From the NCBI GenBank assembly GCA_040384485.1, contig JAZKJH010000003.1:71556-135555 (forward strand): a DNA stretch of 64,000 bases. Reading direction: 5' to 3'. Origin of the DNA: Patescibacteria group bacterium (GTDB lineage: Bacteria > Patescibacteriota > Minisyncoccia > Phycocordibacterales > DATDWN01). The position numbers and the translations under genes are program-made. Shown here in pieces: positions 1,363-10,708 of this stretch. The notes below the pieces were generated by a model. The model was given only the letters and a program-made list of their open reading frames with translations. It was not told where the DNA came from and made no database searches. How positions within the stretch are numbered: position 1 is the stretch's first letter; each line of letters starts with the position of its first letter.

Positions 1363-1449
1363 GGATGGATGGCTGAGTGGTCTAAAGCAACAGTCTTGAA
1401 AACTGTCACCTGGGCAACTGGGTCGTGAGTTCGAATCTCACTCCATCCG
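1363..1449 (+). tRNA. tRNA-Ser (anticodon TGA), long variable arm
   Basis: Acceptor GGATGGA/TCCATCC with discriminator G. Anticodon loop CTTGAAA (U33, TGA, A37). Long variable arm; T-loop GGGTCGTGAGTTCGAATCTCAC. Confidence 0.85.
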
Positions 1450-1456
1450 CAAACAG

Positions 1457-1716: not shown

Positions 1717-2154
1717 TTGTACGTTATAATAAAACATATGAATAAAAATATTATATCAACCATTATTGTGGTTTTAATTATTATAGGTGGAGTTTATTGG
1801 TTTAACTCAAGCAAAAAAGTAGTAGATACAACAAATGAATCCCCTGTTGTTAATTCCGGTGAGAACACTAGTCAACCTGGGGCAACGATGCCAGGTTTAC
1901 CGGCGGAACCTGCTGCTACTGAGGCCAGAAAAGATCTTGCTTTAAAACTCAATACTGATGAAAACAATATTCTAATTATGCAGGTTGTGGAAGTTACATG
2001 GAACGACGGATGTTTAGGCCTGGGCAGAGCTGACGAAGGATGTATGCAAGCACTTGTTCCAGGATTCAAGGTTGAGTTATTTGCAAAAGGAAAACTCTAT
2101 ATATACAGAACAGACAAAACTGGTTCTAGCTTAAGAGCTGAAACCGCGATATAG
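1717..2154 (+). CDS. Hypothetical membrane-anchored/secreted protein
   Basis: 145 aa (alternative start MNKNI at 1738); N-terminal hydrophobic helix IISTIIVVLIIIGGVYW, Pro/Ala-rich linker, Cys-containing C-terminal domain; followed by a strong terminator. Confidence 0.5.
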   Translation: MYVIIKHMNKNIISTIIVVLIIIGGVYWFNSSKKVVDTTNESPVVNSGENTSQPGATMPGLPAEPAATEARKDLALKLNTDENNILIMQVVEVTWNDGCLGLGRADEGCMQALVPGFKVELFAKGKLYIYRTDKTGSSLRAETAI

Positions 2155-2168
2155 AAAATCAAATAAAA

Positions 2169-2243
2169 ACCACTCAACAAATTGTTGAGTGGTTTTTTAT
2201 ATAAAATAAAACCCCTGCGTCACAGTTAAGTGCGCAGAGGTTG
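2169..2243. terminator. Back-to-back terminators between convergent genes
   Basis: ccactcaacaaattgttgagtgg + T-run terminates the plus gene. cccctgcgtcac..gtgcgcagagg hairpin followed by a T-run on the minus strand terminates the Ubl operon. Confidence 0.6.
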
Positions 2244-2263
2244 TTGAAAAAACAAAGAACTAG

Positions 2264-2515
2264 TTAGTTACCTCGAACCTTGGAGAAGACCAGGATCTGG
2301 TCGCCATCCTCCATGCTGCCGGTGAGGCTGCTGATCTTGGTGCCGTTAACTCGGACATCGAGGGAATCGCCTCGACCCGAACCACTGAGTCCGGCCTTTT
2401 CGAGACCGTCCTGGTAGGTACTTCCGGCGCTCATGGTGTAAGACGTGATCTTTCCACCAGGGAATGCGCCGATTTTCACAGTGATTGCCTTTTCAGTTGT
2501 ACGCGGTGCTGCCAT
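2264..2515 (-). CDS. Ubiquitin-like beta-grasp protein (ThiS/MoaD/Ub-like), C-terminus ...KVRGN
   Basis: 83 aa from ATG at 2515, preceded by AAGGAGAAGAG SD. The track ORF extends to a TTG at 2569, which I consider less likely. Sequence MAAPRTTEKAITVKIGAFPGG...DGDQILVFSKVRGN has beta-grasp-like spacing; last residues Gly-Asn. Higher GC than the flanking genome. Confidence 0.6.
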   Translation of the reverse strand: MAAPRTTEKAITVKIGAFPGGKITSYTMSAGSTYQDGLEKAGLSGSGRGDSLDVRVNGTKISSLTGSMEDGDQILVFSKVRGN

Positions 2516-2572
2516 TACTCTCTTCTCCTTGGGTTGACGGACATTCGTTAACGTACTGCATTCGAACAATGA

Positions 2573-3271
2573 CTAGAAGTTAGAGGTGTTAACCATCATG
2601 GGCTGAAGTGAAAAAATAATTTCATTCTCCACTTCATCCACAACAGCTTTGCCAACCTTTAACTCTTCTTGACCTTGATGCCAGCGAATTAGCTGCCAAA
2701 CAGCAAGACCTGAAACCACTTCAGCAGTGGACCCAACACTAATGCTGGTTCCACATGCGGAGACCTCGGCCACATCATCGGAATAAAGAGTTTCCTCCCA
2801 TCCCCTGACTTGTCCTGGGTTTGATGGATTCAGAGTATAAATACGTCCACTGTTCTTCCCCATGCGAGTCTCAATCATGAGCTTCACATAGGTTTTGTAT
2901 TTTAGTCCCGTCTTCCAGATCTCCTGGCGAGATGCCATGGTATCGGTCAGAAGGAAAACTACGTCACCAAGACGTTGTGATCCGTCTACTTTTTCTGGAT
3001 GAACAGAAACTTCTGTTCCAGTCTGCTCCCTGATGATATTCATCAAGGCATCGACCTTGGACATGCCGACATGGTTGTTGCCAAAGATTTGATTCGGCAC
3101 GTTGTGTGCCTCAACCTTGTCATAATCCCAAATATGAATATTCGGGATACCAAGCTTGGCGAGTCCCAAAGCGATACGCGAACCGGTCGCTCCAACTCCC
3201 ACTACATCAACCCTTTGATCCCCAAATGTCTCTGGGGAAAAAACTTCGATGTGTCGCATTGTGTCTAGCAA
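2573..3271 (-). CDS. E1-like adenylyltransferase (ThiF/MoeB/E1 superfamily), short form
   Basis: Rossmann VDVVGVGATGSRIALGLAKLG; E1 signature DYDKVEAHNVPNQ; candidate catalytic Cys in EVSACGTSISVG. TTG start with GGAGG SD 5-6 nt upstream; stop is 4 nt from the Ubl ORF. Confidence 0.7.
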   Translation of the reverse strand: MLDTMRHIEVFSPETFGDQRVDVVGVGATGSRIALGLAKLGIPNIHIWDYDKVEAHNVPNQIFGNNHVGMSKVDALMNIIREQTGTEVSVHPEKVDGSQRLGDVVFLLTDTMASRQEIWKTGLKYKTYVKLMIETRMGKNSGRIYTLNPSNPGQVRGWEETLYSDDVAEVSACGTSISVGSTAEVVSGLAVWQLIRWHQGQEELKVGKAVVDEVENEIIFSLQPMMVNTSNF

Positions 3272-3283
3272 TTAACCCTCCTT

Positions 3284-4045
3284 TTATTGTCGTGGTCCAA
3301 AGACACCAGTAAAAAACCATGGTTTGTGCTTGTACTTGTAACCTTTGCCGATCTTCATCGGCATTGGGCGCAAATACTTCACCTTAGCCTGCATTTCAGC
3401 TAGAAGATCTTGCTTCAGTTGTTGATAAACTGCGTTACTGACCCTGGGTCCTTTGACTTTCCACGGCAACTTATCGAACTGAACATTGTTCTTCCAGTCA
3501 TAGAGACTGAAGCTAACTTCTCCTCTGCGGTTAAAAATACCGCGAAGGAAAAAATCAGATCCAAAATCCCGAAACGTATTCATGGTCATATCATCCTGAC
3601 CAGATGGTTCAGTACCACCTGTACCGTGTGAATGACCCCAAAAACGAATGTTGTTAAAAATATCTTCGCCGTTTGGACGTGTGAGCACGTCTTGCATGAC
3701 ACTTGCCATGCTATCCGTATTCAGTTCTGTTTGACCATAGTTAACACTCTGGTCAAACAAAAAGATATCGTCAACAAGAACGTGTTTTCCTAATTTTTTG
3801 GCAGTGCCAAGCCATCCAACTTCCATCTCGATGGCACTGATGATTATGTAAATCTTCAGAATGGCCAGATGACTCAAACTAACAACAGGTATCACGTCGG
3901 GAAGACGCAACATCCTTGCTGAAGTAGGAAACTGTCTCGGCAAAAGAAAACTGTCGGCTTGGGTCCTTGAAATATCCCAACCTGGACCTTGGTCTTCCTT
4001 AGCTATCTCGTCTTTTTCCTCTAGTTCTGGAGCGGCATGATCCAC
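3284..4045 (-). CDS. JAB/JAMM (MPN+) metalloprotease-like deubiquitinase/desulfurase candidate with ~110-aa N-terminal extension
   Basis: EMEVGW ... FWGHSHGTGGTEPSGQD fits E-x(n)-HxHx7Sx2D exactly. GTG start with AAGGAG SD; its stop overlaps the SD of the E1 gene (translational coupling). Confidence 0.7.
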   Translation of the reverse strand: MDHAAPELEEKDEIAKEDQGPGWDISRTQADSFLLPRQFPTSARMLRLPDVIPVVSLSHLAILKIYIIISAIEMEVGWLGTAKKLGKHVLVDDIFLFDQSVNYGQTELNTDSMASVMQDVLTRPNGEDIFNNIRFWGHSHGTGGTEPSGQDDMTMNTFRDFGSDFFLRGIFNRRGEVSFSLYDWKNNVQFDKLPWKVKGPRVSNAVYQQLKQDLLAEMQAKVKYLRPMPMKIGKGYKYKHKPWFFTGVFGPRQ

Positions 4046-4165
4046 AGACTAACTCCTTGTTTTGATGTAAATGTTCACTTCCTACAAAACAGACTACATA
4101 ACTATGCCTATTCTGTCAAGTCCAATTTTGGAGCATGTCGGTAACCCTTGTTATATTTATTAATA

Positions 4166-4208
4166 TGTGTTATGGTATAAAAGGAAAGTCACCCGTGGGT
4201 TAACCCAC
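4166..4208 (+). promoter_or_regulatory. Promoter-like TGGTATAAA (-10) followed by perfect 14-bp palindrome GTGGGTTAACCCAC (candidate operator) just upstream of the RBS
   Basis: tatggtataaaagg (extended -10-like). GTGGGTTAACCCAC at 4195-4208 is its own reverse complement. AAGGAG RBS and ATG at 4221. Confidence 0.45.
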
Positions 4209-4220
4209 AAGGAGCACTGA

Positions 4221-4787
4221 ATGAACACTGCGACGATTGAAATCCCCCGATATGGAAGTCTCAAACTGCACTATGCGACTATGTGCATAGTGGTGTTGGG
4301 CACAATGTTTCAAGTGGGACATTTTGCTGAACATGCTGTGCAGTTTGGAATGTGGCTATTCAGTGACAGGTCAATGCCCTGGATGTCAACGTGGGCAATG
4401 TATCTCGTCCACCAGATTGGTCATTGGGCTGTGCCCGATGCATCTGGTGCAAGGCAGATGGCTGTCGGGATGGAACTGCTTCATCTCGTCGGCAATGGTA
4501 TCTTCTTGGTGACCATTGCTGCTTTTTACAAACATTCACCAACCAAACTTGTACGACAGGCATTTTACGTTGAGGGTTTTCATCTAATTGAGCACTTGTT
4601 GCTCACCTTCTCTGTAATCTATCTGGGAAAACCAATCGGGTTCAGTACTCTATTTGGTAACAGTTCACTTGTTTGGGACAAAGAAGGAGTTGTTGGTTAC
4701 AGGGTGTTTTGGCACTTCGCCATGAATCTCGTACCTTCAATTCTCATCATGAAAGCCATGATGAACATGAGGTCAAAAACTCAATAA
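4221..4787 (+). CDS. Hypothetical His/Trp-rich polytopic membrane protein
   Basis: 188 aa, ~5 hydrophobic helices, repeated HxxxH / H-W motifs (GHFAEHAVQFGMW, HQIGHWAVP, HLIEHLLL); strong terminator downstream (ggtccatgctttcgcatggacc + T-run). Confidence 0.55.
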   Translation: MNTATIEIPRYGSLKLHYATMCIVVLGTMFQVGHFAEHAVQFGMWLFSDRSMPWMSTWAMYLVHQIGHWAVPDASGARQMAVGMELLHLVGNGIFLVTIAAFYKHSPTKLVRQAFYVEGFHLIEHLLLTFSVIYLGKPIGFSTLFGNSSLVWDKEGVVGYRVFWHFAMNLVPSILIMKAMMNMRSKTQ

Positions 4788-4807
4788 AGTTTTCCTGTTT
4801 CAATACT

Positions 4808-4876
4808 CGGTCCATGCTTTCGCATGGACCGATTTTTTTATAAAAAAACAACCCCGTTTATAAGCGGGGTTGGTAA
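4808..4876. terminator. Two face-to-face rho-independent terminators
   Basis: ggtccatgc-tttc-gcatggacc + Ts (plus strand). caaccccg-tttataa-gcggggttg with A-run upstream (serves the minus strand 579-aa gene). Confidence 0.7.
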
Positions 4877-4884
4877 GCCTAATC

Positions 4885-6624
4885 TTAACGGGCGCTGCGT
4901 AACTTAGTTACTATTGCTTCGCCAGTTTGTCGGCTATCAAAACTTCTCAAAAAATCCAAAGACATAGTCACAACAGTCTCTAGTTCAAGTCCGCCCAATA
5001 ACTCTGGAAAGGTGGACGTAAGTTGACCTAATGGCAACTCCCCACTTTCTCCACGCAATTGTGGTGACTGAAACACGCTACCGTCTGCAAACCATATCGG
5101 TAGAAGGTTTTTGAACGTGTTAACTCCGGTGGAGAAATTATACTCGAGTGTAAAATCTCCAATCCAGTAAGAAAGACCGGTAGCAACGTCAGTTGCCTTC
5201 AGTTTTTTTGTCTCAACCTTCAAGACGTCGTCCTTGATTGAAACTTTCTTAACACCATCAAGCTTTTGAACCTCAGCAACTCGTTTCTGGATTAGAGTTG
5301 TGATGCTGTAAACCAGAACTGGAGGCTTTCCTCTTCCAACCAGCTGTTCTTTGGTCTCGAGGTGTTCTCCAAGAGTCTCTGCAAGAGTTCCTTTAAGGAT
5401 AGCCGCCTGGTCAGGTCTTACTCCCTTTCTGGCCTCCAAAAGATCTCTCTCGATTTTAACCCTATTACTTCCGTGGGTTTCTTTAAAGACGCTGATGAAT
5501 CCTGCTTTCACCGTCCTGTCCAAAGCATCCTTCTTTACTGGATACACCATTCTCTTTTCAACAACTGGAAACAGTTCCAGAATTTTCTGATAAGAAATGT
5601 TCTCATTAACTGACTCTACTGCCTTAAGTGAAAAGAGTAGAGCAGCTTCGAACTCAAAATCTCTCAAAAGAGTGAGGATGCCTCTACCCTCTCCATGGCA
5701 CCACTCTCCACCCAAACGGTCTACGTGTGGATGTCCATACTTACCAGAATACCCACCATATTCATGATATGGTCGGCGTGACTTGTTGACAAAGACCGCC
5801 TGACCCCCGTCCCCAAAAGTAAGTTTGATTTCGAATTCACCAAACTCATGAATCTTCTTGGTTTGCGAGTGTTCACAATACATTGGGTGTGTGGTAATTA
5901 ACAGTTGAGTCCCGTCAACTCTGATGTCTTTCACTTCGGGGATTTTGTAGAGGTTATCGATGACTCGATCCGACTCTAATGTATCACCCCCAAGTTTTTT
6001 AAGTTGTGCCTCTAAGGCAACAGCTTGAGTGACTGAACCCACCATTTTTTTTCGATGCACCACCACCAAAGACTTCAAGGGTTGAAGAATCTTGGTGTTT
6101 GGAGCAACGAAGTTACCTTCATACATCTCTTCCAAAGTGGGAAATGCTCCCCACCCAAGAAGTATTAACGTCTCACGCAAAATCTTTCTGTAAATATCGA
6201 GACGTGCCTCAGTAACTGTTCCACCAACAACAGGAAACAGCACATACAACTCATTCTTGTTGATGAGCTCTGCGACTGCATATCCACTTGTCGGATCAAC
6301 AATCACCATGCCTTTTCCAGAAGGTTCAAACAAATAGCCTAACTCGATGTTCGCCTGTCCAGCTACTGATAAACCCCACATCTTTGAGGGAATATCCTGA
6401 AATCCGGCTTCGTTACGAGCCCTGCTATAAAGATGGATTATGAAAGAGGACCTGTCTCTCCTGCCCGGTGGATTATGTTCACCCTGGACATCCCACAGAT
6501 ACAAATCCTCAACTCCATTAACTTCAAACGGTCGACCGACAGTACTTCTGGTGACTTCCAGAAACCTATCCTTCGTCTCGTACCCATGTCCCCAATTGTG
6601 TGGTCTGATATTCATCCCCAACAC
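4885..6624 (-). CDS. Large hypothetical protein with candidate E2/UBC-like active-site motif (YGHPHVDRLGGEWCHGEG)
   Basis: 579 aa. The central segment has HP[NH]-V-D-x6-C spacing similar to the UBC HPN-loop/catalytic Cys (HPNIDSNGSICLDIL). No other recognisable domain from sequence alone. Confidence 0.4.
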   Translation of the reverse strand: MLGMNIRPHNWGHGYETKDRFLEVTRSTVGRPFEVNGVEDLYLWDVQGEHNPPGRRDRSSFIIHLYSRARNEAGFQDIPSKMWGLSVAGQANIELGYLFEPSGKGMVIVDPTSGYAVAELINKNELYVLFPVVGGTVTEARLDIYRKILRETLILLGWGAFPTLEEMYEGNFVAPNTKILQPLKSLVVVHRKKMVGSVTQAVALEAQLKKLGGDTLESDRVIDNLYKIPEVKDIRVDGTQLLITTHPMYCEHSQTKKIHEFGEFEIKLTFGDGGQAVFVNKSRRPYHEYGGYSGKYGHPHVDRLGGEWCHGEGRGILTLLRDFEFEAALLFSLKAVESVNENISYQKILELFPVVEKRMVYPVKKDALDRTVKAGFISVFKETHGSNRVKIERDLLEARKGVRPDQAAILKGTLAETLGEHLETKEQLVGRGKPPVLVYSITTLIQKRVAEVQKLDGVKKVSIKDDVLKVETKKLKATDVATGLSYWIGDFTLEYNFSTGVNTFKNLLPIWFADGSVFQSPQLRGESGELPLGQLTSTFPELLGGLELETVVTMSLDFLRSFDSRQTGEAIVTKLRSAR

Positions 6625-6704
6625 TGTCTCCTTTTGATAAGATTACAAGGTTCGAATCCTTCAATACTAAATCATGTACTGAATAAAAAGTCAAATCCAT
6701 GGAC

Positions 6705-6740
6705 TTGACAAAGCACCACTTTTAGTATTCTATTATTAGG
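6705..6740 (+). promoter_or_regulatory. Sigma70-like promoter for the FAD-oxidoreductase gene
   Basis: TTGACA-n17-TTCTAT/TATTAT upstream of AAAAGGAG RBS and ATG at 6811. Confidence 0.4.
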
Positions 6741-6810
6741 CAATACCCTAGGTAAGACTCGGGTACACAAGTTCTTTGAAAATCACACTGCCAAAAGGAG
6801 ACTCTCGTCA

Positions 6811-8343
6811 ATGAACACGAACCGTCAAGCAACTGCACCCGTGATAGTGAAAACTTTCGCTCCGCAAGGTCTACAGTTCTTGGACTTGGGCGCCTTGCGT
6901 GGATATATGGAGGCCAAGGACTATGACTTGGATGTGGTCTCAAAGTTTGCAGAACGTGGAGTATTTGCTCCCCTGTTTGCAGACTTGGTACTCAGAACAG
7001 GCGGCTTGGATAACGAACTGTTGAATCAGTTCGGCCAAGCACTACAGCATGTTCCCCCAACAAAACTGGAATCATACACAGGTTCTGACACCCAGAACAG
7101 TCGTATCGATTCAGCGATTGCCAACAGTGGAATCGCTCGTGATGTAAAGCGGTATGGTGAAGGGTCAGCAAGTTTCTTTGAAACGAAGTCTGTTATTCCG
7201 ACATCAATCAGAAACGTTCCTATTGCCATCGTTGGCTATGGAGCAGCTGGTATTATCGCTGGATACGCCCTGAGCAAATTGGGGTTCCAAAGAATCACAG
7301 TGTATGAAAAAGGGAAAAATCTCGGAATTTGGAGCTACAAGAACGTTTTTGAACTTTCTCGTAACAATCCTTTGAGATTGCAATTTTTCAACAGTGTTCT
7401 TGATCCGGCACCAGGAGGAGGAATCGAGGTTCGAGACTTCCTATCCAGGCTGGCAATTCTGAACACAGTCGACGCAAGGGTTGTTAAGATCCAGCCAGGC
7501 AAAATGAAGCACAAGCTGGTCTTCTCCGACAAAAGCACGGCCGAATATCCAATCGTGGTTAATGCGGTCGGCTTGGGAAAACCAAGACCAGTTTCTGACC
7601 CCGCACGAATGGTTACGGAAACTGGACAGGCACATGCTGGTGCCAGATGGCAACAGCAATTGAGAGTGGAGGATGTTGCTGGACAACAGATTGTTTTGAT
7701 CGGCTTAGGAAATTCAACAGCCGAAATGCTCCAGCAAATCCACACCCTCATCGACGACGGCTACTATGTCGACTACCGTGTGCTTACACATTACCCAGAA
7801 GAAGCTGTCTACAATCCCTCAACTTACGTTGAGGAAGATGGGCGAACATTCCGGGTGTTTCGAGACACATCAAAACCAAATCTCGTTGACTACCAAGGAG
7901 ATTTGGCACGTTCCAGATATGATTACTTTCGTGCACTACACGAAGGTAAAATCATTTCGGGAGTTAAACGCTGGGAAGTAAAAACGCCAGGAGTCATGGC
8001 AATTTACGGGAAAAACAGAAAAAATCTCGGTAAGTTGCCGTTCGACAAAGTAATGACTCTTATTGGTTATCATCAAGGAAAGGACGAGATGCAAAATCTC
8101 GGATGTTCCTATGATGAAAAGCAGGGCAGTGGAGTGTTCGACTATGATGGCGAAGTCGCCGGCATGCCAGGAAACTCCGATCCAAAGAAACGCCTTCACA
8201 AGGGATACTTTGGGTTTGGTTCTATCCTGGAAACACCCCTTAACCCGAATGCGATCGTAATTCCTGGAATGCTTCACCGCATCGGGGACCTGGCATTCAG
8301 TGTGATTATGCGAGCAGCAGAATTTCGAAATAAAGATCTGTAG
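6811..8343 (+). CDS. FAD/NAD(P)-binding oxidoreductase (flavin monooxygenase / pyridine-nucleotide-disulfide oxidoreductase-like)
   Basis: 510 aa; first dinucleotide-binding motif IAIVGYGAAGIIAGYAL, second VLIGLGNSTAEM; GC-richer than the host genes. Confidence 0.6.
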   Translation: MNTNRQATAPVIVKTFAPQGLQFLDLGALRGYMEAKDYDLDVVSKFAERGVFAPLFADLVLRTGGLDNELLNQFGQALQHVPPTKLESYTGSDTQNSRIDSAIANSGIARDVKRYGEGSASFFETKSVIPTSIRNVPIAIVGYGAAGIIAGYALSKLGFQRITVYEKGKNLGIWSYKNVFELSRNNPLRLQFFNSVLDPAPGGGIEVRDFLSRLAILNTVDARVVKIQPGKMKHKLVFSDKSTAEYPIVVNAVGLGKPRPVSDPARMVTETGQAHAGARWQQQLRVEDVAGQQIVLIGLGNSTAEMLQQIHTLIDDGYYVDYRVLTHYPEEAVYNPSTYVEEDGRTFRVFRDTSKPNLVDYQGDLARSRYDYFRALHEGKIISGVKRWEVKTPGVMAIYGKNRKNLGKLPFDKVMTLIGYHQGKDEMQNLGCSYDEKQGSGVFDYDGEVAGMPGNSDPKKRLHKGYFGFGSILETPLNPNAIVIPGMLHRIGDLAFSVIMRAAEFRNKDL

Positions 8344-8462
8344 TTTGTGATAACAGATTACCAACCAAATCTTCAGCAAGTCCGTTAAGGCATTGTTGAA
8401 GATTTTTTCTTTACTTATAACCTACTCTACTTTTATATTGTTAAGTTTAGTATAATTAATTT

Positions 8463-8918
8463 ATGGAAAAAATTTCTTGGAAAACAATAGAATACTTACA
8501 TCAAGAAAAAACAACTGATTGGTATTGGATTGTAGGCATAATTACAGTCTCTATAGCAATAATATCTATTCTTCTTAATAATCTGATATTTGCAATACTT
8601 ATACTCGTAGCGTCTTTCACACTGACACTTTTTGCATCAAAAAAACCTGAGATAATGCTAGTCGAGCTAAACGACAAACATATCATGTTTGGAAAAACTA
8701 AATTTCCATACAAAGAACTTGACGCTTTTTGGATTGAAACTAAGGATGGAATGCCGAGAATTATACTGAAATCAAAAAAGCTTTTCATGCCATATATCTC
8801 TATTTTCCTAGAAGAAACTGATCCTGAAAAAGTGCAAGAGTTTTTAATTACAAAACTAGAATCAGAAGAAATGTCAGAGCCTTTGTTTGAAAAAGTGCTT
8901 GTGTACCTAGGTTTCTAA
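8463..8918 (+). CDS. Hypothetical membrane protein
   Basis: 151 aa, two adjacent TM helices near the N-terminus, AT-rich host-like composition. Confidence 0.45.
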   Translation: MEKISWKTIEYLHQEKTTDWYWIVGIITVSIAIISILLNNLIFAILILVASFTLTLFASKKPEIMLVELNDKHIMFGKTKFPYKELDAFWIETKDGMPRIILKSKKLFMPYISIFLEETDPEKVQEFLITKLESEEMSEPLFEKVLVYLGF

Positions 8919-8958
8919 TTCTGGAAATGGATAAGCTTGTGTGTTAGTCTCTTTAAAC

Positions 8959-9030
8959 GCTCCCGTAGTTTAATGGATAGAATGTTGGCCTGCGAAGCTG
9001 GCGATCCAGGTTCGATTCCTGGCGGGAGCA
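8959..9030 (+). tRNA. tRNA, 72 nt, anticodon loop CTGCGAA (reads as Arg-GCG); anticodon stem has 3 G-U pairs, so it is possibly a variant/pseudo-tRNA
   Basis: Acceptor GCTCCCG/CGGGAGC; perfect T-arm CCAGG-TTCGATT-CCTGG; D-arm GTTT-AATGGATA-GAAT. The anticodon stem TTGGC/GCTGG is mostly wobble pairs. Confidence 0.55.
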
Positions 9031-9076
9031 CAAATAAAAAAACCACTAACAGTGGTTTTTTTATTTGTGCTCCCGC
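9022..9076. repeat. Perfect 26-bp inverted repeat (55 bp with 3-nt loop) that includes the last 9 nt of the tRNA; functions at least as a terminator
   Basis: GCGGGAGCACAAATAAAAAAACCACT-aac-AGTGGTTTTTTTATTTGTGCTCCCGC, arms exactly complementary. Confidence 0.8.
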
Positions 9077-9149
9077 AGAAAGCCGTGGGTACGGCTTTAG
9101 TCAGGAATCGAAAACTTGTGATAGTTTTTGTGAACAATGTGAAACAAAA

Positions 9150-9345
9150 ACGGAACAAGTGTACCGTTCATGTAATGAAAGATTCCGGCGGCAAATATCC
9201 CTGACCACAGATGTCTTCATGTACCATTCACATAATGAAAAATTCCTGTTGGTGAAATTTTTTCCAAGAAGTGAGATATCCTGGCAACAAATATCCCTGA
9301 CCACAGATGCCTGCATGTACCATTTATGTAACGAAATGTCCCCAA
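9150..9345. repeat. Tandem direct repeat, unit ~93 bp, ~2.5 copies
   Basis: caaatatccctgaccacagatg(t/c)ct(t/g)catgtaccatt.a..taa.gaaa occurs at ~9193 and ~9286, with a partial third copy at ~9160. Confidence 0.7.
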
Positions 9346-9351
9346 CCCCAC

Positions 9352-9762
9352 CTACCCCCTCTTCTTAGACAAATAATTTGCCTTAGACCTTTTAGTTATT
9401 GCCAACACACCTATAACAACAATGTATGTTGTATATATTTCGCTTGGCATTTTATAAATATCGCTATAAAATATTTGTAGTATAAAAAGACCTACCACAA
9501 GAATAGTCCAAAAAAATACATAAAATTCGCCAGGATGTCGCCCGACATTTGTATCATGCCATCTTTCAAACTCTTTCTGGGCACTATAAATAGCCAGAAC
9601 TGCCATATAAATAGAAGAGACTGGGCCGATAAGATTTATCATTGAGTTGTGCCCTATAAAATCTAAGATAATAAGTGTATATAGAGCAAGGGTCCAGAAA
9701 TTAACCAAATGTCTCCAGACTCCAACACTTAACAAGGAATCTTTTTTATTTTTTGGGCTCAT
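9352..9762 (-). CDS. Hypothetical membrane protein (4 TM)
   Basis: 136-aa ORF, multiple hydrophobic helices. Confidence 0.45.
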   Translation of the reverse strand: MSPKNKKDSLLSVGVWRHLVNFWTLALYTLIILDFIGHNSMINLIGPVSSIYMAVLAIYSAQKEFERWHDTNVGRHPGEFYVFFWTILVVGLFILQIFYSDIYKMPSEIYTTYIVVIGVLAITKRSKANYLSKKRG

Positions 9763-9807
9763 GTTGTCTTCAAGTATACCAAAAAACCGCTTTCGCGGTC
9801 TTTTGTT

Positions 9808-10068
9808 TTATCCCCTCTTTATCATTGCGTTGATTCTTGATTTCTTTCTTCCGGCTGTATTTGCTTTAAGCAATCCTGTCTTTACTGATTTATCTAGAAT
9901 TTTTTGAACCTTTGGCATTAGTGCTCTGGCTTCATCTAGTTTTTTGTCTGCAACAAGTTTTTTTACTTGTTTAACTGCTTTGTTTATTTGCTCTTTTTTT
10001 GCAGTATTGAAACCTCTTTTTGTTTTAGAGGATCTAAGAGCTTTTTTAGCTGATGTTGTTATTGGCAT
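9808..10068 (-). CDS. rpsT: 30S ribosomal protein S20
   Basis: 86 aa, basic, MPITTSAKKALRSSKTKRGFN...; matches the S20 pattern (SAKKR...K...N) and length. Confidence 0.7.
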   Translation of the reverse strand: MPITTSAKKALRSSKTKRGFNTAKKEQINKAVKQVKKLVADKKLDEARALMPKVQKILDKSVKTGLLKANTAGRKKSRINAMIKRG

Positions 10069-10156
10069 ATCGGCAATACTATACCATAGTATGAATTTTG
10101 TCTACCCCTATAAACCCATACTTCTACTACCAATACAAATAAGGTAATATATACCT

Positions 10157-10708
10157 ATGATTGGCTACCTAAAGGGCACTATTCTTCACACAGACGACAG
10201 ATTCATTATCTTGGATGTGTCAGGGGTTGGATATAAGGTTTTTACCAATACCGCCTTCGTAAATACAGCCAAGGAGGTATCTTTTTGGACATATCTGGCT
10301 GTTAGGGAAACGGCTTTAGACCTATACGGTTTTCAAACCAAGGAAGAAATGGATTTTTTTGAGCTTCTTATAACAGTATCTGGAATAGGGCCGAAATCAG
10401 CGTTAAGTATCATGGGACTCGCGACTCTAAAAAACCTACGTCAGGCTATTAAAACTGGTGACGTGGGACATTTGGTAAAAGTATCGGGGGTTGGAAAGAA
10501 GAATGCTGAAAAAATTGTTGTTGAACTTAAAGACAAGATTGGAGATATTGAGTTCGGTGTAGGAGAAGGAGTATCGGACATGGATGCGCTAGAAGCCCTG
10601 AAGTCTCTAGGCTACAACGAAAAAGATGCTCGGGAAGTTTTGAAAAAAGTTTCTGATGTGTCTGATACTGGGGAAAAGGTTCGTAAAGCCTTGAAACTCT
10701 TGAGTTAA
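10157..10708 (+). CDS. ruvA: Holliday junction DNA helicase RuvA
   Basis: MIGYLKGTI... N-terminal OB domain, HhH motifs (ITVSGIGPKSAL, VSGVGKKNAEKIV), C-terminal domain III. Confidence 0.85.
   Translation: MIGYLKGTILHTDDRFIILDVSGVGYKVFTNTAFVNTAKEVSFWTYLAVRETALDLYGFQTKEEMDFFELLITVSGIGPKSALSIMGLATLKNLRQAIKTGDVGHLVKVSGVGKKNAEKIVVELKDKIGDIEFGVGEGVSDMDALEALKSLGYNEKDAREVLKKVSDVSDTGEKVRKALKLLS

Follow-up and report, generated by a model that had tools for sequence, protein, structure and literature searches.

Here, we describe a group of six genes in a 64,000-nt stretch of a Patescibacteria genome (contig JAZKJH010000003.1, positions 71,556 to 135,555; hereafter, the window). The genes fill an island of raised G+C content at positions 2200–8350, downstream of a gene for tRNA-Ser. 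Four of them encode an E2-like protein, a JAMM peptidase, a minimal ThiF-type E1 and a ubiquitin-like protein (Ubl); the two accessory genes encode a flavoprotein and a DUF6008 membrane protein. We find that the six genes form one conserved cassette, and we propose that this cassette was acquired horizontally and that its four-gene core is a complete Ubl-conjugation module of an undescribed family. We put the probability of this reading at roughly two in three (about 0.68). A first-pass annotation of the window, made from the letters alone, had described the island as foreign-looking cargo. Its identification of all six genes holds, but it missed that the genes are no miscellany and are conserved as a unit.

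That the six genes belong together is evident from other genomes. When 5.8 billion clusters were searched by words, only four relatives of the 576-aa E2-like protein were found. Three other loci (L001–L003) carry the same six genes, each in an order and orientation of its own and beside housekeeping genes that differ from locus to locus (guaA, rpmG and NAD-salvage genes). Besides DUF6008, the products there are a flavoprotein (~511 aa), an E2-like protein (~580 aa), a JAB-like protein (~267 aa), a ThiF protein (~233 aa) and a Ubl (69–84 aa). Three loci from Paceibacterota (L004–L006) have five of the six genes and lack DUF6008, which is present in the cassettes of the window, L001, L002 and L003 only. 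One of these five-gene cassettes (L005) lies 3 kb from a serine recombinase. The six-gene form is seen only on cellular Patescibacteria contigs, of up to 476 kb. In the window, all six open reading frames (ORFs) are intact and the catalytic residues are conserved.

The four-gene core has a wider distribution. A metagenome scan seeded with the E1 profile alone gave 233 relatives, of which 80 loci were kept. Genes for the E2-like protein, JAB peptidase, E1 and Ubl are adjacent in 46 of these 80 loci; of the remaining loci, most are truncated at contig ends. One of the E1-seeded loci encodes the flavoprotein and none encodes DUF6008, leaving 79 of the 80 other operons of the family without either. 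The same module, in the same order, is also present on two viral contigs of the IMG/VR collection (207 and 188 kb), where its neighbours match phage-type nucleotidyltransferase, transposase and lytic transglycosylase families. A search of a literature library yielded no description of this operon family. Judged by sequence, the core module represents an undescribed family of bacterial ubiquitination-like operons, large and unannotated.

Additional genes are associated with the module in some of its members. In 10 of the 80 loci, the E1 gene is immediately followed by one for a ClpB/Hsp100-type double AAA+ ATPase of ~780 aa (Table 1), and in three of these ClpB-linked loci the ATPase is followed by a radical S-adenosylmethionine (radical-SAM) protein and an aminotransferase-like protein. 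Four loci (L162, L163, L165 and L168) have, after the Ubl gene, genes for an SMC/RecN-like ATPase (655–787 aa) and for a protein with three ThiS-like domains. On the 188-kb viral contig (L093, 460–1601 and 4978–8376), there are two E1 paralogs and a di-Ubl, both repeats of which end in IKGA, and a gene for an IS200/605-type transposase stands between the two halves of the system.

The Ubl of the window has only weak similarities in the databases, to ThiS and MoaD; the weak match to ThiS aligns the C-terminal Gly. The protein ends in Gly-Asn, and its orthologs in L001–L006 all end in (V/I)RGN. To follow this terminus across the family, we took the last two profile positions of 87 distinct repeats from 62 proteins. 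The dipeptide is GN in 79 repeats, GA in 4, SN in 3 and AN in 1, such that Gly and Asn are each found in 83/87, and variable caps come after the Asn. In 45 cases the dipeptide is followed by a stop, in 11 by a variable extension of one or two residues (A, S, N, K, D, G or QS), and in 31 by the next repeat of a 2–4-fold head-to-tail poly-Ubl or by another domain. This pattern resembles that of ubiquitin, with its Gly-Gly and optional cap. Two readings of the Gly-Asn end suggest themselves. Asn may be the residue that is activated, by analogy with MccB, the top PDB match of our E1 profile (in its nucleotide-binding part only); the peptide that MccB activates must end in Asn. It is also possible that the JAB peptidase removes the Asn, as may be argued from type II of the Bil system, in which BilC cuts between Gly97 and Ala98 (PMC10557695), a precedent for JAB processing one residue from the end. 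The registers of the poly-Ubl repeats are ambiguous with respect to cleavage after Gly versus after Asn.

The E1 matches the Pfam family ThiF (PF00899) with 72.2 bits, compared to a cut-off of 28.1 (E = 4.7e-20). It is 66–79% identical among the Patescibacteria cassettes, and across the family it consists of a single ThiF domain in a protein of 219–260 aa. Residues G25, G27 and G30 as well as Cys173 are invariant in 10 family members, phage and distant versions included, and alignment to ThiF would place Cys173 in the crossover loop. The best PDB matches of the family profile are MccB (8.7e-11), ThiF (1e-9), Uba5 (2e-9) and PaaA, with MoeB also among them; Cap2 (1e-6) and BubCD (1.6e-5) rank lower, and BilD is absent from the PDB matches of this profile. 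The match to MccB covers residues 10–100 only, which is the nucleotide-binding part, and lies 3.5 bits above that to ThiF. The N-terminal peptide-clamp domain of MccB is absent, as the E1 is only 232 aa long. The 'E1-E2' (Cap2) models of PADLOC match the Rossmann part of the E1 (best 8.4e-16), over 70–80 residues only. We also considered the PRTRC system (Iyer 2006 type 6d) and rejected it: among its models (TIGR03735-03742), only PRTRC_ThiF matched, with 39.2 bits versus a cut-off of 144.75.

For the JAMM peptidase, 109 homologs were found. Its profile matches CSN5 (5.6e-4) and Rpn11 (0.03) in the PDB, and its score against Pfam Prok-JAB is 15.6 bits, under the cut-off of 25. The sequences EMEVGW and H138-S-H-GTGGTEP-S-GQ-D151 are invariant in four orthologs.

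The E2-like protein has no family in Pfam, NCBIfam, PADLOC or PHROGs, and of its relatives, 0/10 tested have a Pfam family and 0/4 tested a PHROG family. Against 1.84 billion representatives, a HMMER profile of the 576-aa protein gave 1114 matches at E < 1e-3; ~20 of these are full length, and most cover only the first 355 profile positions. In an AlphaFold2 model of the protein (predicted local distance difference test score, 91.5), an N-terminal alpha/beta domain and a coiled coil precede a domain composed of one helix, a beta-meander, a long loop and then three helices; this domain is repeated after another coiled coil. At least 90% of 150 relatives conserve P296, H297, C306 and G308. Of the 26 PDB matches of the domain profile, 24 are E2 enzymes, at E ~0.08, with HPhV..G.aCLG aligned on HPNID..GQVCLP. 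Comparison by hhalign to five canonical E2s, the sequences of which were entered by hand, gave a probability of 91.5% (E = 8.6e-7), the alignment extending from helix 1 through the meander to the HPN loop and the Cys. At its C-terminal end the protein has a duplicate of the E2-like domain (hhalign probability 99.7%, E = 9e-26), with Pro in place of the Cys. For the N-terminal residues 1–160, no PDB or E2 relationship was detected. The best Foldseek matches to the E2-like fold, RWD and UbcH5c, are weak (template-modelling score ~0.38) and do not confirm the fold. The relationship to E2 enzymes thus appears at the level of profiles, and the name 'E2-like', given to this protein in the first-pass annotation (as an ORF of 579 aa), stands on the alignment of its HPN and Cys positions with those of canonical E2s.

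These parts suggest a pathway. The JAMM peptidase would mature the Ubl, by cutting poly-Ubl or capped precursors at the Gly-Asn end, and would also reverse the conjugates. The minimal E1, probably a homodimer, would adenylate the C-terminus of the Ubl and, going by its motifs, may hold the Ubl on Cys173. The Ubl would then move to Cys306 of the UBC-like domain in the 576-aa protein. In this protein, the N-terminal domain, the coiled coils and the inactive UBC-like domain may serve as built-in adaptors for substrates or for chain building, akin to an E2/UEV pair plus an E3-like part. From Cys306, the Ubl would be attached to target proteins. With regard to its role in the cell, the module would most likely act in conflicts with mobile elements, phages among them, or else tag proteins for unfolding. 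We propose these roles because of analogy and of context, namely the variable hot spot described below and the patchy distribution.

Table 1. Features of the island, its surroundings and related loci (window positions unless a locus is named)
Feature	Position	Strand	Remarks
tRNA-Ser(tga)	1363-1450	+	Conserved left anchor of the variable site, 0.8 kb left of the island
hyp145	1717-2154	+	GC3 0.29, host-like; between tRNA-Ser and island
Left border	2165-2197	.	16-bp perfect hairpin with T-runs on both sides (bidirectional), between hyp145 (+) and Ubl gene (-); G+C step here
Ubl, 83-aa beta-grasp	2264-2515	-	Ends ...SKVRGN*; start taken at MAAPRT; mechanical ORF runs to 2569
Ubl Gly82	2270-2272	-	Terminal dipeptide
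Ubl Asn83	2267-2269	-	Terminal dipeptide
Minimal E1, 232 aa	2573-3271	-	Single ThiF-type adenylation domain; Pfam ThiF
E1 GxGxxG (G25-G30)	~3182-3199	-
E1 Cys173	2753-2755	-	S-x-C-G, putative crossover-loop region
JAMM/MPN+ metallopeptidase, 253 aa	3284-4045	-	N-terminal extension ~60 aa; JAMM motif
JAMM Glu75	~3821-3823	-	EMEVGW
JAMM H138-S-H-x7-S-x2-D151	~3593-3634	-
DUF6008 membrane protein, 188 aa	4221-4787	+	4-5 hydrophobic helices; Pfam DUF6008 3.9e-29
Two convergent terminator-like hairpins	4807-4872	.	Between DUF6008 (+) and E2-like gene (-)
E2-like multidomain protein, 576 aa	4885-6615	-	From ATG at 6615; mechanical ORF from GTG 6624, 579 aa
E2-like domains (residues)		-	N-terminal 1-152 (fold family unassigned); coiled coil; UBC-like ~212-346; coiled coil 367-420; inactive UBC-like duplicate 434-576
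E2-like HPH 295-297	5725-5733	-	Active domain
E2-like Cys306	5698-5700	-	Active domain
Two-dinucleotide-binding-domain flavoprotein, 510 aa	6811-8343	+	N-terminal domain ~130 aa; FAD motif GYGAAG at 142; GLGNSTAE at 298
Right border	8344-8462	.	Intergenic, ahead of hyp151; G+C falls to ~0.33
hyp151	8463-8918		GC3 0.27, host-like; between island and tRNA-Arg
tRNA-Arg(gcg)	8959-9031		tRNA call
TonB C-terminal domain protein, 278 aa	32400-33236	+	G+C 0.50, GC3 0.43
Giant ORF, 3878 aa	33285-44921	-
Giant ORF, 1463 aa	45541-49932	-
Giant ORF, 2788 aa	49954-58320	-
ClpB/Hsp100-like ATPase (L104, L105, L107, L115, L117, L119-L122, L129)	~7763-10100 in most of these loci

The island differs from its surroundings in composition. 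Its G+C content is 45.2% (0.452), compared with 39.5% (0.395) for the rest of the window, and among sliding windows of 6151 nt the highest G+C falls exactly at start 2201; non-overlapping windows of this length have a mean of 0.399, a standard deviation of 0.017 and a maximum of 0.434. The excess sits at synonymous third positions. G+C at third codon positions (GC3) is 0.42–0.62 in the six island genes (mean 0.479) versus 0.329±0.047 in the 32 other genes of the window (Mann-Whitney p = 1.4e-6), and it is 0.21 in rpsT. Tetranucleotide distance to the rest of the window also reaches its maximum in the island, at 0.279 versus 0.169±0.031. Composition is therefore not uniform, and all three comparisons confirm the G+C-richer segment of ~6 kb that had been noticed by eye.

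Other G+C-rich stretches, at 32–42 kb and 53–55 kb, were considered as similar islands and rejected, since the giant genes there (33–58 kb) are enriched at codon position 2 only. The three giant ORFs (Table 1) have G+C of ~0.5 at second and ~0.27–0.29 at third codon positions, which attributes their raised G+C to amino-acid composition. The highest G+C outside the island belongs to the gene for a protein with a TonB C-terminal domain (6.3e-19), unusual in a Patescibacteria genome.

Relative to the backbone of this bacterial family, the island is an insertion, located at a hot spot for variable genes. To compare relatives, we scanned with RuvA (10157–10708 in the window) and kept one genome per species, which gave 80 Paceibacterota/Zambryskibacteria-like loci that are at most 72% identical; these were inspected within ±10 kb of ruvA. 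Their backbone reads csaA, ruvX, (tm77), tRNA-Ser(tga), a variable stretch, hyp151, tRNA-Arg(gcg), rpsT, ruvA, fpg. Within this range, none of the six island proteins, nor hyp145, has a tblastn match (E ≤ 1e-5) in any of the 80 species. The distance from tRNA-Ser to tRNA-Arg is 0.5–1.0 kb in six relatives (L013, L015, L017, L034, L038 and L078), compared to 7.5 kb here, and in other relatives the same gap holds unrelated cargo, with genes for HtrA-like protease, glycosyltransferase, pilin-like and giant surface proteins. It is this combination of absence, spacing and alternative cargo that identifies an insertion at a variable site. Together with composition, absence from the syntenic site bears out the foreign status that had been suggested for the island. 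By contrast, the description of the island as an old, domesticated acquisition is not supported, because its composition has not drifted towards that of the host, GC3 still being ~15 points higher. Rather, the rarity of the cassette, its different genomic context in each host and the relatives of its core on ~200-kb viral contigs point to a transfer that was comparatively recent, or repeated.

As the first-pass annotation had it, the island is flanked by two tRNA genes, for tRNA-Ser and tRNA-Arg; a correction is that a host-like gene intervenes on either side, hyp145 on the left and hyp151 on the right. The repeat debris reported beside both tRNA genes is real. The last 16 nt of tRNA-Ser are copied at 1613–1628 (16/16) and at 1654–1669 (13/16), a 72-nt direct repeat occupies 9169–9240 and 9265–9336, and a perfect 26-nt inverted repeat, or hairpin, lies at 9022–9076. 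The left arm of this hairpin begins within the 3′ end of tRNA-Arg (GCGGGAGCA...); it is probably a terminator, though it duplicates the acceptor end of the tRNA in inverted form. The 9-mer TCCCTGACC is present in 4 copies in the 64 kb, versus 0.42 expected, all of them beside tRNA-Ser (1605 and 1646) or tRNA-Arg (9198 and 9294). A repeat pair (att) bracketing the island was not found, and the tRNA-derived repeats do not bracket it because both copies of the tRNA-Ser end (1613–1669) lie to its left. Between 1450 and 8460, gene calls together with Pfam, NCBIfam and PADLOC matches include no integrase, transposase or recombinase, in agreement with the earlier statement that no integrase or transposase is present.

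Several further observations concern this region and its counterparts. Short elements with the TCCCTGACC core span 1594–1669 and 9169–9336, and in several relatives TCCCTGACC lies ~130–200 nt from tRNA-Lys; the element may be a tRNA-linked repeat or the scar of an old attachment site. In 16 related species (among L011–L045), hyp151 is preceded by a gene for a membrane protein of ~142 aa (MxIKQASILLSRIALFVIYFWFG...), which has no counterpart in the window and in whose place the island sits. In one relative (L017, 14034–14109), ARAGORN calls a tRNA with the anticodon tta ('tRNA-Stop') where other relatives have tRNA-Lys(ttt), which may represent a suppressor tRNA or a sequencing variant.

The two accessory genes belong only to the Patescibacteria branch of the family, where they are linked to the module. 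The flavoprotein adjoins it in 6/6 Patescibacteria cassettes. Its earlier designation as a two-Rossmann FAD oxidoreductase is upheld by two GxGxx(G/A) motifs; it matches Pfam NAD_binding_8 (9e-6), with Pyr_redox_2/3 under the cut-off, and its similarity to PDB entries is only at the Rossmann level, to flavin monooxygenases. A word search gave 115 homologs, some labelled as DPANN archaea by their sources, and in other Patescibacteria the gene stands alone (L089 and L090). In DUF6008, alignment reveals conserved H34, E37, H38, E85xxH88, E118xxH121, E124, H125 and H165, and the two ExxH motifs are reminiscent of membrane di-iron enzymes. The pair stays beside the module through three rearrangements, which argues for a functional link. 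Tentatively, we suggest that flavoprotein and DUF6008 probably form a redox couple, which would serve as target, effector or sensor of the module. A flavoprotein homolog is also found in a locus labelled Woesearchaeota (L091, 729–7611), where the neighbouring proteins, one of 544 aa with a ThiF domain and one of 966 aa, are both unrelated to those of the cassette. We rejected this locus as a relative of the cassette; it may be another E1-linked system.

Could the module make a small molecule rather than a protein conjugate? Sets of Ubl, E1 and JAB proteins are known from sulfur-carrier pathways, namely CysO/Mec+ and QbsC/D/E (thioquinolobactin synthesis). By this account, the Ubl would be a carrier of the ThiS/MoaD type, the E1 would make a thiocarboxylate or acyl intermediate, JAB would trim, and the flavoprotein and the oxidase-like DUF6008 protein would be tailoring enzymes. 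The similarities of the Ubl, weak as they are, are to ThiS and MoaD, and the E1 is minimal and ThiF/MoeB-like, with both of these among its best PDB matches. In addition, the Patescibacteria copies of the module show tight linkage to a flavin-monooxygenase-like gene and a putative metallo-oxidase, and radical-SAM and aminotransferase genes lie downstream in some related loci. However, 79/80 other operons lack the would-be tailoring enzymes, and an E2-like protein with a conserved Cys and an inactive E2-like duplicate is a constant part of the module. Tandem poly-Ubl genes make no sense for a stoichiometric sulfur carrier, the Ubl ends in Gly-Asn instead of Gly-Gly, and Pfam and NCBIfam find no rhodanese, cysteine desulfurase or other sulfur-transfer domain in the six proteins. 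We consider a sulfur-carrier function improbable.

Two other alternatives concern the origin of the island. The block might be ancestral and vertically inherited, and lost in relatives, with a G+C content set by amino-acid composition, expression level or selection. No integrase, att site or mobility gene was found, as would fit vertical descent, and the G+C of the cassette exceeds that of its flanks in every host examined, which fits an intrinsic bias, and partly tracks host G+C (42–53% in hosts of 33–52%). Yet the excess is at synonymous third positions (GC3 0.48 versus 0.33, and 0.21 in rpsT), 0/80 related species have the block at the conserved site, and unrelated cargo occupies that site in others. 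Only ~20 full-length homologs of the E2-like protein are seen among 1.84 billion representatives; moreover, the cassettes of other hosts adjoin guaA, rpmG or NAD-salvage genes, and relatives of the module reside on viral contigs. Vertical descent with loss therefore strikes us as a long shot. Alternatively, the island might be the remnant of a phage or mobile element, in which the Ubl module served the element (for example, by modifying proteins of the host or of rival phages) and is now stranded, possibly non-functional for the host. This idea gains from the occurrence of the same module, in the same order, on the two IMG/VR contigs of ~200 kb, with genes for phage-type nucleotidyltransferase, transposase and lytic transglycosylase as neighbours, from the serine recombinase 3 kb from the L005 cassette, and from the tRNA-adjacent repeat scars. 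But genes for phage structure, replication or integration are absent from the island and its immediate surroundings, the six ORFs of the island are intact, and the six-gene form is seen only on cellular Patescibacteria contigs, making a stranded remnant unlikely.

There are caveats to the reading that we favour, namely a horizontally acquired cassette with a Ubl-conjugation module at its core. Conjugation, thioester formation and the cleavage site are all predicted from motifs and alignments, and the suggested role of the flavoprotein and DUF6008 derives from gene neighbourhood and is accordingly weak. The canonical E2s used with hhalign were, as mentioned, entered by hand. Among the PADLOC models of defence systems, none reaches its curated cut-off with any of the six proteins, the partial Cap2 matches of the E1 being the only ones. 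As to acquisition, neither att repeats nor an integrase nor a donor was found for the cassette, and its elevated G+C in every host could reflect constraint on the genes rather than recent transfer. Finally, relatives were inspected within ±10 kb of ruvA only, and the cassette could lie elsewhere in those genomes.

A bolder version of the conjugation model, which we regard as possible but doubtful, would involve new chemistry. Here, the Asn of the terminal -Gly-Asn would be the reactive residue, handled by a MccB-like minimal E1 and perhaps passing through an Asn succinimide, to yield an unusual linkage or a Ubl-nucleotide adduct. With polyubiquitin-like precursors, an E2 plus pseudo-E2, and a Clp/Hsp100 unfoldase in some members, the whole would constitute a self-contained 'tag and unfold' system, found on ~200-kb viral contigs and in bacteria of the candidate phyla radiation. 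Coupling to a membrane redox pair, made up of the flavoprotein and the di-iron-like DUF6008, would be added in Patescibacteria. If Asn does turn out to be the activated residue, this would be a new conjugation chemistry.

Only recently have CBASS Cap2, Bil and Bub been shown to conjugate proteins, and these systems inform current thinking on how eukaryotic ubiquitin signalling arose. The cassette points to a further, sizeable family, with more than 1000 cluster representatives of the E2-like protein and 233 relatives of the E1 in one metagenome scan. Its members occur on ~200-kb viral contigs as well as in the ultra-small genomes of Patescibacteria, which have few genes to spare. As an insertion at a variable tRNA-adjacent site, the island is ordinary; what makes it interesting is its cargo. 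The island shares with tRNA-linked genomic islands its deviating composition, its position next to a tRNA gene, its absence in relatives and the nearby copies of a tRNA 3′ end; unlike them, it has no integrase and no bracketing repeats, and host-like hyp145 parts it from the tRNA.

Among known systems, Bil (BilABCD, types I and II; Millman 2022; Chambers et al., PMC10557695) is similar in gene content, with four separate genes for Ubl, E2-like protein, JAB/JAMM and E1. Trimming of the Ubl beside a conserved Gly is needed in Bil and may be needed here, and in both systems the distribution is sparse and patchy, in variable regions. The differences are numerous. Gene order is E2-JAB-E1-Ubl here versus Ubl-E2-JAB-E1 in Bil; the E1 is a single domain of 232 aa, in contrast to BilD, in which an inactive and an active adenylation domain stand in tandem and a mobile Cys domain is added (PMC10557695); and the E2-like protein, of 576 aa, has extra domains and PH...C.G in place of the CEHH motif of BilB. 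The end of the Ubl compares ambiguously: Bil has a universally conserved Gly and a variable tail, and here the Asn after the Gly is as conserved as the Gly itself, with variable caps beyond it. The flavoprotein and DUF6008 are without counterpart in Bil. Bil is also characterised by protection against phage, through Ubl conjugation to virion proteins; the features of the cassette that bear on such a role are its place in a variable hot spot and its patchy distribution. The PDB matches of our four profiles (three at E up to 10, one at E up to 0.1) include no Bil-named molecule, the presence of Bil chains in the searched copy being unconfirmed. Thus, the four-gene content of Bil is found in the cassette, but not its multidomain E1, its CEHH-type E2 or a sequence relationship to its proteins.

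The Bub system ('6E/DUF6527'; PMC11601596, PMC11601603) resembles the module in its minimal E1 of homodimer type, in Ubls with one to several tandem beta-grasp domains and in an inactive E2/RWD-like domain, and BubCD is a weak PDB match of our E1 profile (1.6e-5). Bub uses Ser/oxyester chemistry, with no Cys in E1 or E2, JAB-E1 or E2-E1 fusions and a DUF6527 serine protease (PMC11601596). Here, by contrast, the genes are separate, an invariant Cys is present in both the E1 and the E2-like domain, and Pfam detects no DUF6527. We rejected membership in Bub, there being no DUF6527 match and both Cys residues being in place. In type II CBASS, Cap2 and Cap3 likewise combine E1 and E2 chemistry with a JAB partner, but Cap2 is an E2-E1 fusion that conjugates a CD-NTase and not a Ubl; no CD-NTase or effector is found here. 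MccB and PaaA, of microcin C7 and pantocin A biosynthesis, can be compared with the module through the E1 profile, of which MccB is the top PDB match, and through Asn, which ends 83/87 Ubl repeats. They differ in that the E1 here has no peptide-clamp domain, that its substrate would be a folded protein of the beta-grasp type, and that it is accompanied by E2-like and JAB partners.

Finally, the module invites comparison with eukaryotic ubiquitin. Head-to-tail poly-Ubl precursors, a terminal dipeptide with an optional cap, and the pairing of an active with an inactive E2-like domain are common to both, and the best PDB matches of the JAMM peptidase and of the E2-like domain are CSN5 and Rpn11 and eukaryotic E2s, respectively. 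In contrast to the eukaryotic system, the module has Gly-Asn instead of Gly-Gly, a minimal E1, and no RING or HECT E3, and sequence similarity between the two lies at the detection limit. A Gly-Asn terminus, poly-Ubl genes, an active and an inactive E2-like domain within one chain, a minimal E1 that bears a Cys and an occasional Hsp100-type unfoldase set this family apart from every characterised system.

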